Source: Escherichia coli (GTDB lineage: Bacteria > Pseudomonadota > Gammaproteobacteria > Enterobacterales > Enterobacteriaceae). From it: DNA of 64,000 bases. The translations under genes and the position numbers were made by a program. Location: NCBI GenBank assembly GCA_902499925.1, contig GCA_902499925.1_4130.1; one strand, written 5' to 3'. A model generated the notes under the pieces. The model was not told the origin of the DNA. It made no database searches and was given only the letters and a program-made list of their open reading frames with translations. The number at the start of each line of letters is the position of its first letter. Within the stretch, counting starts at the first letter, position 1. Positions 45,634-46,495 of this stretch are shown here, piece by piece.

Positions 45634-45986
45634 TCTGGTATTCCTATATTGAATTTGTATTCTTGATTAATACTGACATTGCCTTTATTCAAAGAGTCAT
45701 ACTCTTTCATTTCATTTTGTATTGCAATAACTTCTTCAAATGTACACAAGTACTTCTTATCAAATACTAATGACTCCTGAAATAGTTCAGCGGCATCCAT
45801 TACTGTATAATCCGGCATATCCTGATGCGGATACTGTAATGAATTATAATCAATGAATGTGAATTTACCCTGAGTGAAATGAATATACTCATTTGCACTG
45901 TGCATTAAATCACCTTTGTTTAAATTACAAAAGTACTGAAAACTGTTCTTAAAAGAATGTACTGATATTACAAAATCAAATTCCAT
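45630..45986 (-). CDS. FQ-motif paralog (short form)
   Basis: 118 aa; MEFDFVISVHS...; DAAELFQESLVFDKKY. Confidence 0.8.
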   Translation of the reverse strand: MEFDFVISVHSFKNSFQYFCNLNKGDLMHSANEYIHFTQGKFTFIDYNSLQYPHQDMPDYTVMDAAELFQESLVFDKKYLCTFEEVIAIQNEMKEYDSLNKGNVSINQEYKFNIGIPE

Positions 45987-45988
45987 CA
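45907..45988 (-). repeat. 82-bp direct repeat, copy A
   Basis: 80/82 identical to 46414-46495 by eye (two substitutions); covers the 5' end of gene 45630..45986 plus the junction. Confidence 0.8.
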
Positions 45989-46354
45989 GTACTCAACCTC
46001 TAAATTAAAAGATTCAGGAAACTTAGTCATATAATCTTCAGGATAGTTCTGCATTGTTTTGATCATCTCTACCTGTGTAGCACGGACGTATTCAATTGGT
46101 GCTCCTGGTAAATTCCAGACAGTACTTTCCTGAAAGAATTCCTCTTCTGACAGTACTGTAAGATTTACAAAATCATTACGGTAATTTTTTGAATCATCAT
46201 ATGTGAAGATTTTAAAAGACCCATTTTCATATAGTACAAGAACAAAATGTGAGAATTTTTGTAATGCACCACCCATTTCCACGTCCGCATGATTCAGTGT
46301 ACAGATGACCTCTTTTTTCCTCATACCGAATTGAATTCTAATTTCTTTTTTCAT
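45986..46354 (-). CDS. FQ-motif paralog (short form)
   Basis: 122 aa; SEEEFFQESTVW; AGGAG RBS. Confidence 0.75.
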   Translation of the reverse strand: MKKEIRIQFGMRKKEVICTLNHADVEMGGALQKFSHFVLVLYENGSFKIFTYDDSKNYRNDFVNLTVLSEEEFFQESTVWNLPGAPIEYVRATQVEMIKTMQNYPEDYMTKFPESFNLEVEY

Positions 46355-46364
46355 AAAATCTCCT

Positions 46365-46493
46365 TCAGATTAGTACTGAATTTGTACAGAATATTAGAAC
46401 TGTATCCATAATCAAATCACCTTTGTTTAAATTACAAAAGTACTGAAAACTATTCTTGAAAGAATGTACTGATATTACAAAATCAAATTCCAT
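46365..46493 (-). pseudogene. truncated FQ-family paralog fragment (42 codons)
   Basis: The first 27 codons (MEFDFVISVHSFKNSFQYFCNLNKGDL) are identical in protein to the start of 45630..45986; the frame then diverges and stops; it keeps the same ATGA junction with the upstream gene. Confidence 0.6.
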
Positions 46494-46495
46494 CA
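46414..46495 (-). repeat. 82-bp direct repeat, copy B
   Basis: 80/82 identical to 45907-45988; forms the 5' part of the truncated paralog. Confidence 0.8.

Follow-up and report, generated by a model that had tools for sequence, protein, structure and literature searches.

How does a phage come to carry the start of one gene twice, once at the head of an intact reading frame and once, 507 bp upstream, at the head of an ORF of only 42 codons? The question is posed by a stretch of 64,000 nucleotides, referred to here as the window, which belongs to an Asteriusvirus-type (PBECO4/121Q-like) jumbo coliphage; its best match is phage Turkey3 (96.7%), and all matches to it are Asteriusvirus-type jumbo phages of E. 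coli or Salmonella. The locus lies in a minus-strand array of small paralogous genes, of which X1 is the one with the duplicated start. The analysis described below points to the import of a small cassette, made up of the stump of a foreign gene and a complete gene, Y. The parts of the locus, with the evidence on which each rests, are as follows.

46493..46870, minus strand: gene U, 125 aa, the upstream neighbour (ORF list, translation and match to phrog_15629, 3.6e-50)
46411..46495, minus strand: repeat copy B, comprising the U-stop/start junction TGATG and the first 27 codons of X1, at the head of the chimeric ORF (82/85 to copy A)
46365..46493, minus strand: chimeric remnant ORF, 42 codons plus TGA; from its translation, 27 X1 codons fused to a frameshifted stump resembling phage A4 gene 364 (A4_364)
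46411..46418, minus strand: left joint, 8-bp microhomology GATTTGAT (DNA alignment of A4, 121Q, slurp01, Turkey3, the window and X1 5′ ends)
46355..46410, minus strand: stump, 56 nt, the 3′ end of an A4_364-like gene, including the ribosome-binding site of Y, AAGGAG
46400..46406, minus strand: site of a window-specific 19-bp deletion, ATACAGATACAGAGGCTGT having been lost between two ATACAG repeats (alignment with Turkey3 and G17)
46386..46396, minus strand: site of an older 63-bp in-frame deletion, between TAATGTTCTGT and TAATATTCTGT (alignment of A4, 121Q and others)
45986..46354, minus strand: gene Y, 122 aa, the complete cargo gene of the cassette (phrog_13866, 1.1e-43)
45982..45988, minus strand: right joint, 7-bp microhomology TGATGGA (junction comparison of A4, the window, fEgEco12 and PBECO4)
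45904..45988, minus strand: repeat copy A, the 5′ end of intact X1 (repeat search and direct comparison)
45630..45986, minus strand: gene X1, 118 aa, intact; the target, with the cassette inserted in its 5′ end (phrog_15629, 1.3e-54)

A repeat search and direct comparison place the two copies at 82 identical bases out of 85, with sharp edges beyond which identity drops at once. The figure of 80/82 that a first-pass annotation had read by eye for 45907-45988 and 46414-46495 is reproduced exactly by alignment. Chance can be excluded as the origin of the repeat, because a 25-mer from its core, with up to 3 mismatches allowed, is found at two places in the window and at none in 100 shuffles. It is also the sole direct repeat of at least 40 bp with more than 85% identity within the 64-kb window, the others reflecting old paralog similarity of 60-83%. 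The repeated sequence is the coding 5′ end of X1: copy A heads the intact gene, as had been annotated, and copy B duplicates its beginning. The copies differ at three third codon positions, each time synonymously (TTT/TTC, AAC/AAT, TTA/TTG), and the 27 shared codons therefore encode identical residues, again as annotated. The earlier description was also right that each copy contains a gene start, but the accompanying junction is TGATG, a stop and a start with one base in common, rather than a four-base ATGA overlap; the TGA of gene U shares this base with the ATG of copy B. The short ORF has the extent first given for it, running for 42 codons (46493..46365, minus strand) to a TGA that is followed by AAGGAG ahead of gene Y.

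Where the first-pass annotation does not hold is in the origin of this ORF, which it took for a duplicated paralog with a later internal deletion. Beyond residue 27, protein comparison finds no alignable similarity to X1. Relatives of the ORF have 53 aa (in slurp01, G17, Turkey3 and others) or 74 aa (in 121Q), and the exact 42-aa sequence has no match in a collection of 15 billion proteins. The least decayed form is the 74-aa gp366 of 121Q: its residues 1-27 match the N-terminus of X1, and its residues 24-74 align at 78% identity (E 1e-25) with the C-terminal 51 residues encoded by gene 364 of phage A4. The latter gene encodes 192 aa and sits directly upstream of Y in A4-like phages; in the genomes and contigs searched, intact 192-202-aa genes of this kind are confined to A4-like phages, and the gene order around them (182aa-G364-Y-112aa) is constant in A4 and five A4-like contigs from other assemblies. 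Since the tail of the ORF matches the C-terminus of A4_364, the ORF is a fusion of two different genes brought about by insertion of a foreign segment, 27 codons coming from the start of X1 and the rest from the 3′ end of the 192-aa gene. The 85-bp repeat is the target duplication arising from insertion of the cassette.

The joints are in keeping with such an origin. Each comprises no more than 10 bp shared between parents that are otherwise non-homologous and can both be identified, namely X1, as found in PBECO4 and fEgEco12, and the A4_364-Y pair. At the left joint the parental sequences are ..AAAGGTGATTT[A/G]ATGCAC in X1 and ..CAACAGGATTTGATTATGGAT in the A4_364-like gene. At the right joint, TGATGGA contains the stop of Y and the start of the following gene in A4, and the stop of U and the start of X1 in cassette-free phages.

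Comparison of the orthologous locus in related phages, which had been suggested as a check, covered 37 GenBank phage records together with a few contigs from Logan, ENA and NCBI, and revealed two allelic states. The cassette is present in 12 genomes, including the window, and absent from some 20 relatives that have exactly one copy of the repeat, so that the long and the short state differ by precisely one repeat copy plus the spacer. The locus is recombinationally active, as first proposed, and related phages vary here in repeat copy number. The identical joint is found in 11 other phages belonging to three diverged lineages, and AAAGGTGATTTGATTATGGATAC together with a G at repeat position 83 was present in 11/11 long-state sequences examined; as the same joint occurs in these other phages, the insertion event is not private to the window genome. 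Among the genomes examined there were no intermediate structures, whether U-X1[1-85]-stump-Y with the A4-type gene next in line or U-G364-Y-X1. In IMG/VR, the repeat core and Y matched nothing beyond 121Q itself and a single distant relative, scans of metagenomes and GTDB genomes with Y and the joint sequence gave no matches, and a scan of complete E. coli genomes and plasmids likewise gave none. Neither the locus nor the paralog arrays come up in the papers on Asteriusvirus, PBECO4 and 121Q.

The divergence of the cassette bears on its age. Between the window and the other carriers the cassette is 97-99.5% identical, whereas the flanks of most carriers differ by 10-18%. For slurp01 there are 2/422 differences in the cassette against 87/610 in the flanks (Fisher p 9e-19), and the contrast is similar for 121Q and the G17-type phages. 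Nucleotide identity of Y to the window allele is 99.5% in slurp01, 98.6% in 121Q, 96.7% in the G17 type and 94.3% in A4, the last to be set against 77.6% between A4 and the window in the DNA-ligase core region. Constraint does not account for the similarity of Y, because 11 of its 21 differences from the A4 gene are protein-changing. The cassette is far less diverged than its surroundings and is therefore young and spreading horizontally. The recombination had been called recent from the outset, and in this population sense the description stands, although not beyond it. A4 itself is not the donor; its stump region is about 80% identical at the protein level, lower than Y.

Closer to the window, the history seems more intricate. 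Eight phages share 98-99% identity with it in the core region; Turkey3 alone among them carries the cassette, and the Y allele of Turkey3 is 372 nt long as opposed to 369 nt in the window; comparison of these sequences argues for independent imports within the clade. The window haplotype is itself a patchwork, with a left arm like that of ph0011, a cassette like that of slurp01 and a copy A of the clade type. The last ~125 nt of gene U agree with the short-state phage ph0011 at every variable site among 12 genomes compared, and the internal variants of copy B (C38, T44) are those of the single-copy X1 allele of the same phage. Copy A is identical to the single copy of Ecwhy_1, vB_Ec-M-J, CMSTMSU and TH47. 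The haplotypes of the copies thus match X1 alleles present in cassette-free phages, and the pattern as a whole would need several crossovers, one simple exchange not fitting.

The stump has meanwhile been shrinking, from 138 nt in 121Q to 75 nt in most relatives and 56 nt in the window, and the chimeric ORF with it, from 74 to 53 to 42 codons. Direct repeats are present at both deletion sites. The 63-bp in-frame deletion is common to all aligned cassette-bearing genomes except 121Q; the 19-bp deletion, which shifts the frame and takes the ORF from 53 to 42 codons, is seen in the window alone, a single assembly. Correspondingly, the repeat spacing of 507 in the window is unique among 11 long-state genomes, the others having 526, 529 or 589. 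Decay is proceeding through microhomology-flanked deletions, of 63 bp in frame and then, in the window only, of 19 bp out of frame.

These observations can be assembled into a history that we consider likely, in which an imported cassette (an A4_364-like stump plus Y) was joined by microhomology inside the start of X1 and subsequently spread. In the ancestral short arrangement U would have abutted X1, stop and start overlapping in TGATG. Into this site an A4-like relative would then have contributed the last ~47 codons of the 192-aa gene and the whole of Y, joined on the left at GATTTGAT, 82-85 nt inside X1, and on the right at TGATGGA, precisely where X1 begins. In the recipient the left joint is downstream of the right one, so that the 85 nt with which X1 starts would have come to stand on both sides of the insert; the upstream copy, fused in frame to the foreign stump, is the short ORF, the downstream copy still heads intact X1, and both genes have kept a ribosome-binding site and start codon. 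The joint, being identical in all carriers, has a single origin, and the later spread of the cassette among diverged lineages would have occurred by homologous recombination, the crossovers falling within the repeat copies or beside them; recombination between the two copies may also delete the cassette again. The direction of transfer, with an A4-like lineage as donor, is inferred, and the molecular route would have been either a replicative template switch or two illegitimate crossovers. The short state would be ancestral in most lineages, although some short-state phages could be secondary losses.

Four other explanations deserve consideration. The model of the first-pass annotation, in which unequal recombination duplicated X1 in tandem and a deletion between paralogs then removed the middle of the upstream copy, leaving its two ends as the 42-codon ORF, would explain why the first 27 codons of the ORF copy X1, and small deletions did indeed occur within the ORF. 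The end of the stump (...YKF...) is in addition faintly like the C-terminal ...YKFNIG of X1, a resemblance at first taken as support for a paralog and dropped once the A4_364 match was found. However, the tail is related to the C-terminus of A4_364 and has no X1 match past residue 27, an intact A4_364-Y pair exists in A4-like phages, and the position of Y between the two copies is left unexplained, all of which makes the model very unlikely. An assembly artefact, with the duplicate made by a mis-join or a collapsed repeat, is scarcely credible. It is true that short repeats can confuse assemblers and that the Sharanji record has been opened within copy B, its two ends overlapping by 77 nt, but the same joints and gene order recur in 11 independently sequenced and assembled phages, and the architecture is therefore not an artefact of assembly. 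ENA metagenome proteins of 53-55 and 74 aa, the three differences between the copies and their distinct flanks point the same way.

More attention is due to the proposal that the entire PBECO4/121Q group descends from a long-state ancestor and that every cassette-free phage has lost the insert through homologous recombination at the two copies. Phage recombination systems can act on a stretch of 85 bp at 93-98% identity; the short state is just what repeat recombination would be expected to produce, and both states occur in each clade. Nevertheless, an old insert should have diverged as much as its surroundings, rather than remaining 97-99.5% identical across lineages with 10-18% difference in flank and core, and in the window's clade 7/9 genomes are without the cassette while the two carriers have different Y alleles. 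Ancestry of the long state is therefore improbable, though individual secondary losses of the cassette may have occurred. There is also little to recommend, and we judge it most unlikely, that the repeat is an element specialised for mobility or regulation, moving genes with machinery of its own, such as a promoter-early stem-loop (PeSL)-like cassette, a transposon end or a homing-endonuclease target, even though a repeat-flanked gene, with a single repeat in genomes that do not have it, is the PeSL pattern of T4-type phages (PMC2839356). The sequence occurs only twice in the window and is merely the coding 5′ end of X1, and at 85 bp it far exceeds transposon target duplications. A scan of 44800-47400 revealed neither a terminator-like site nor a coding-strand sigma-70-like promoter within the repeats or beside them, counts in the region being no higher than expected from shuffles; the repeat search found no inverted repeats at the cassette boundaries. 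Y, moreover, has no Pfam, nuclease or transposase similarity.

The insertion of such a cassette from an A4-like relative thus remains the favoured reading, and it directs attention to Y. The PHROG profile matches of X1, U and Y are full length, and the two families, which cross-match, are jumbo-phage paralog families annotated as 'unknown function'; no gene of the locus, Y included, matched Pfam. The AlphaFold model of Y, although confident (pLDDT 86), gave no solved-structure match in the PDB (best E 0.11), and in BFVD its fold was found only in uncharacterised phage proteins of the RaK2/PBECO4 type. The locus marks Y as an accessory gene with a recent history of transfer between diverged Asteriusvirus lineages, and for this reason Y is a reasonable candidate for a role in host interaction or anti-defence. 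It is conceivable, if on balance unlikely, that the cassette is self-portable, recombination between the copies releasing a circle of ~0.5 kb (one repeat, stump and Y) that re-integrates by a single homologous crossover at the X1 start of co-infecting relatives; X1 is present in every PBECO4/121Q-type phage examined. If so, this route would amount to a PeSL-like mini-circle built from coding sequence rather than from a regulatory motif, it would explain the near-identity of Y across lineages that differ by 10-20% elsewhere, and Y would be a selfish passenger or else an accessory gene that is strongly favoured and sweeps through the genus.

Among the closest known systems is PeSL shuffling, which together with mini-circles has been described in the T4-type phages RB49 and phi1 (Arbiol et al., 2010; PMC2839356). 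There, a small non-essential ORF in a hyperplastic region lies between two copies of a short sequence, relatives having one copy and no ORF, and ordinary phage homologous recombination between copies was proposed to lead to deletion, circle release and re-insertion (PMC2839356). The cassette described here is similarly bracketed by two copies of which relatives without the ORF keep one. However, PeSL motifs consist of a strong sigma-70-type early promoter and a stem-loop terminator and are dispersed at many sites of the hyperplastic regions, whereas the present repeat has none of these properties: it is the coding 5′ end of a neighbouring gene, exists in only two copies in the window and was created by the insertion itself. 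Integron cassettes offer a second parallel, in that a single promoterless gene moves as a unit to a defined site in an array, from whose context it is expressed, but the cassette has no integrase and no attC or attI, its repeat is plain gene sequence, and its recombination would be homologous and not site-specific. Transposons, insertion sequences and homing endonucleases are distinguished by an enzyme, terminal inverted repeats or duplications of 2-14 bp, none of which is found here, the duplication being 85 bp.

Template switching of the FoSTeS/MMBIR type has been described mainly in eukaryotes and bacteria. It is resembled by the templated insertion, the microhomology at both joints and the duplication of recipient sequence, as if replication had resumed behind its exit point, although the event may instead have been two break-and-join crossovers. 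A fitting framework is the view of phage mosaicism associated with Hendrix and Hatfull, in which joints form by illegitimate recombination at short microhomologies and are then spread by homologous recombination. The 7-8 bp microhomology joints, one of them exactly at a gene boundary, and the exchange of the module via homologous flanks conform to this view; what differs is that both parents are still identifiable and that an 85-bp target duplication and an in-frame chimeric ORF have been left behind, which is rarely so clean. The locus is accordingly a case of ordinary phage mosaicism, unusually well resolved, rather than a new kind of element or mechanism. With parents, joint, target duplication, spread and the stepwise decay of the stump all readable from sequenced genomes, it provides a compact worked example of gene gain and loss in the accessory arrays of jumbo phages.

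In the ORF list every gene in the repeat region lies on the (-) strand. A repeat search of the window returned a direct repeat of 85 nt at 96% identity (45904-45988 against 46411-46495), and base-by-base comparison finds 82 of the 85 bases the same, with identity dropping off at once past both ends. The three mismatches are all synonymous, third-position changes.

Copy A, 45904-45988, (-): repeat copy heading X1
Copy B, 46411-46495, (-): repeat copy heading the short ORF
X1, 45630..45986, (-): intact gene, 118 aa
Y, 45986..46354, (-): gene, 122 aa
Short ORF, 46493..46365, (-): 42 codons
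U, 46493..46870, (-): upstream neighbour gene

The first-pass annotation had read by eye a near-perfect repeat at 45907-45988 and 46414-46495, and direct comparison gives exactly 80 of 82 bases the same. The 42-codon truncated ORF that it placed just before the Y ribosome-binding site is borne out by the ORF list and translation, the TGA of the ORF directly preceding AAGGAG; the junction in the repeat, given there as ATGA, is TGATG, with a one-base stop/start overlap. A whole-window scan finds no other repeat of at least 40 bp at >85% identity, the remainder being paralog similarity of 60-83%, and a 25-mer taken from the core, with up to three mismatches allowed, has two occurrences in the window and none in 100 shuffles. 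The repeat was observed correctly and is non-random.

A query of 5.5 kb spanning the locus matched 36 phage records, all of them Escherichia/Salmonella jumbo phages of the Asteriusvirus (PBECO4/121Q/G17) type, with Turkey3 closest at 96.7%.

Table. Identity to the window in the core region, that with the DNA ligase gene
98-99%: Turkey3, vB_Ec-M-J, WPEC3, WPEC5, EC.P1, Ecwhy_1, fEgEco12, CMSTMSU (n=8)
~86%: PBECO4/G17/slurp01 group
82%: 121Q
78%: A4, Turkey5, JNE01

Alignment of the locus across the matched phage records and 27 fetched loci resolves two states, differing by exactly one repeat copy plus spacer. The long state runs U, copy B with a short tail, Y, and copy A heading X1; the short state runs U, single copy, X1. 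The window, Turkey3, slurp01, 121Q, G17, EC22.5-2, BF17, phAPEC6, SHEFM2K and CRJP21 have the long state, and ECO103 4-12-1 was scored as such on coverage alone. Sharanji belongs here too, its record being broken inside copy B and the structure restored by joining the two record ends. This linear record (OR545507.1) is cut within copy B and the tail that follows it, and the 77-nt overlap of its ends resembles the assembler k-mer overlap of a circular contig, not true termini. About 20 phages have the short state, including PBECO4, fEgEco12, vB_Ec-M-J, ph0011, WPEC3, WPEC5, Ecwhy_1, CMSTMSU, TH47, SP27, E9.1, UE-S1, EC.P1, UB and the Salmonella SD phages. Since the same structure recurs in independent assemblies, an assembly artefact is ruled out.

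The short ORF had been taken for a recently duplicated paralog with a later internal deletion, and its relatives argue for another history. The copy B-headed ORF is annotated as 53 aa in Turkey3, G17, slurp01 and others and as 74 aa in 121Q (gp366). Residues 1-27 of gp366 match the X1 N-terminus, and protein comparison found no X1 similarity past residue 27; residues 24-74 are 78% identical (E 1e-25) to the last 51 residues of A4_364, the 192-aa gene that precedes Y (A4_365) in phage A4 and that ends ...FQQDLIMDVDSAATYSSNVLCKEFQNSKILELLYIADCNILYKFCTHLKEIL. With an X1-type N-terminal end and an A4_364-type C-terminal end, the short ORF is the 5' end of X1 fused to the 3' end of an A4_364-like gene, here called the stump, which together with Y forms a cassette. 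At the DNA level the left joint lies within the 8-bp microhomology GATTTGAT (parents: X1, AAAGGTGATTT[A/G]ATGCAC; A4_364, CAACAGGATTTGATTATGGAT). The right joint lies within TGATGGA, which spans the Y stop and next-gene start in A4 and the U stop and X1 start in short-state phages, and repeat position 83 is G, the A4_364-type base, in every copy B examined. All carriers have one and the same joint sequence, which implies a single origin. In recipient coordinates the right joint falls 82-85 nt upstream of the left, so that the first 85 nt of X1 were duplicated, and the repeat is a target duplication and not the leftover of a duplicated gene. The duplicated-paralog reading fails because the tail is A4_364-like and not X1, as expected of a scar of cassette import; nor is the event private to this genome, the chimeric scar being common to 11 other phages. 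The suggestion of a recombinationally active array stands for the locus, which shows copy-number polymorphism among relatives, while the history proposed for it was wrong.

The stump has decayed stepwise. In 121Q 47 codons of the foreign gene survive. Every other aligned carrier has lost 63 bp in frame between TAATGTTCTGT and TAATATTCTGT, which leaves an ORF of 53 codons. In the window alone another 19 bp are missing between two ATACAG repeats, and the resulting frameshift stops the ORF after codon 42, 10 nt ahead of the Y start. Repeat spacing is 507 in the window, where it is unique, and 526, 529 or 589 in other carriers. A collection of 15 billion proteins does not contain the exact 42-aa sequence. 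When the related Y is modelled with AlphaFold, its opening 27 residues account for no more than the initial two β-strands, so an X1 fragment of this length is unlikely to be a functional protein; the sole role of the open frame may perhaps be translational continuity between U and Y.

In a tblastn search of 50,697 phage records intact A4_364 occurs only in A4, and among 5.8 billion proteins it forms one cluster of 15 members (192-202 aa). A4 and all five A4-like contigs, from other assemblies, share the order 182 aa, G364 (the intact A4_364-type gene), Y (122 aa), 112 aa, 178 aa; the window's counterpart of G364 is only a distant paralog elsewhere (39733-40290, 25% identity). That the G364-Y pair is intact in A4-like phages, as against a stump in others, points to an A4-like lineage as the probable donor. 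A4 itself is ruled out, its stump being more diverged than its Y.

The cassette is far less diverged than its surroundings.

Table. Differences per aligned base between the window and relatives
slurp01: stump + Y 2/422; U + rest of X1 87/610; Fisher p 9e-19
121Q: stump + Y 5/422; U + rest of X1 93/610; Fisher p 7e-17
G17 type: stump + Y 12/422; U + rest of X1 75/610; Fisher p 2e-8

The window Y is 94.3% identical to that of A4 and 96.7% to that of one A4-like contig, and the A4 ligase core region is only 77.6% identical to the window. Because 11 of the 21 nucleotide differences between the window and A4 Y genes alter the protein, protein-level constraint does not explain the similarity. Within its own clade the window has the cassette in common with Turkey3 only, whose Y is a different allele (G17 type, 372 nt; the window's is of slurp01/121Q type, 369 nt). 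The simplest reading is that the joint formed once, that homologous recombination later carried the cassette from lineage to lineage and that the short state is ancestral in most of them; individual secondary losses through recombination between the copies are possible.

The copy haplotypes of each genome also occur as single-copy X1 alleles in cassette-free phages. In the window, the last ~125 nt of U and copy B to at least position 44 equal short-state ph0011 at every variable site; what is left of copy B resembles slurp01, as do the stump and Y; and copy A has exactly the sequence of the single copy in Ecwhy_1, vB_Ec-M-J, CMSTMSU and TH47. This patchwork places exchange points within both copies or at their edges, and the three differences between them are imported synonymous allelic variants and do not reflect decay. 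Several exchanges are required to produce the pattern, which fits double crossovers or integration of an excised circle alike; that a repeat made of coding sequence turns Y into a self-portable mini-circle cassette is rather unlikely. Copy B of 121Q and CRJP21 (L006 1893-1977 and L015 1875-1959 in the fetched loci) carries a divergent 23-nt patch at repeat positions 33-56, with 15 mismatches to window copy A over 85 nt, which is absent from all single-copy X1 alleles sampled. CRJP21 pairs the patch with a 63-bp-deleted stump and a G17-type Y, a combination that implies exchange within a few tens of bases.

Neighbouring genes are likewise mosaic (window 44740-45633 and equivalent parts of loci L003, L004, L006 and L021): the window clade has 61-aa and 114/138-aa genes there, and the PBECO4, 121Q and G17 phages one phrog_9317-type gene of 163-164 aa. 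Over gene 45268-45633 vB_Ec-M-J and TH47 are only 48-77% identical to the window; their core regions are 98.6% and 86% identical, respectively. The window also holds 198 AGTACT palindromes against ~21 expected from base composition, with GTAC at 1.6x its second-order Markov expectation, GATC depleted (102 against 234) and GCGC absent (0 against 24). AGTACT is found in each of the three codon phases as well as outside genes, frequently in the form cAGTACTg. The stretch from ~48 to 52 kb has none, and one site adjoins the right joint of the cassette; the bias is a DNA-level signal.

X1 and U are members of phrog_15629, and Y is a member of phrog_13866, families with cross-hits that PHROG lists as 'unknown function'; no Pfam family reached threshold for these genes. 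The Y model, built on 15 window paralogs, is a confident one (pLDDT 86, pTM 0.80) and has a five-stranded sheet, a pair of helices and a final strand. It found no match among solved structures (best E 0.11) and matches only uncharacterised proteins of slurp01, PBECO4 and RaK2-type phages. Y is an accessory gene that is rapidly exchanged, and it might act in host interaction or anti-defence, which is only a guess. The U orthologue of phAPEC6 (gp447c, L013 1519-1896) is annotated 'amidohydrolase 3', a label that neither Pfam nor PHROGs supports for the window orthologue and that is probably an annotation error. Across ~29500-55400 (-) dozens of adjacent small genes, in two BLAST families (17 and 11 members) plus singletons, carry the motif E-E-x-[FY]-[FY]-Q-x-S (EEYYFQNS, EENYFQQS and EEMYFQGS are examples); an alignment of 15 members shows no variation at F and Q. 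There is a superficial likeness to the TEV protease site ENLYFQ(S/G); these genes have no Pfam match, and one modelled member has no solved-structure match. A separate tandem array at ~55300-61600 (-) holds 24 paralogs, each 70-91 aa long, and in many of them stop and start codons overlap.

Insertion by a transposon or homing endonuclease is ruled out, there being no enzyme, no inverted repeats and a duplication of 85 bp. The import described here fits the general class of phage mosaic joints that illegitimate recombination creates at microhomologies and homologous recombination afterwards spreads; a replicative template switch would leave the same signature. The closest described analogue is PeSL-mediated cassette shuffling in T4-type phages, where an ORF between two motif copies can be lost, freed as a mini-circle and inserted again (PMC2839356). 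Presence and absence follow the same pattern at this locus, whereas the features that define PeSLs are lacking: a sequence scan found no promoter or terminator in the repeat, which has just two occurrences and is the 5' end of the neighbouring gene X1. The case is a well-resolved example of a known process.
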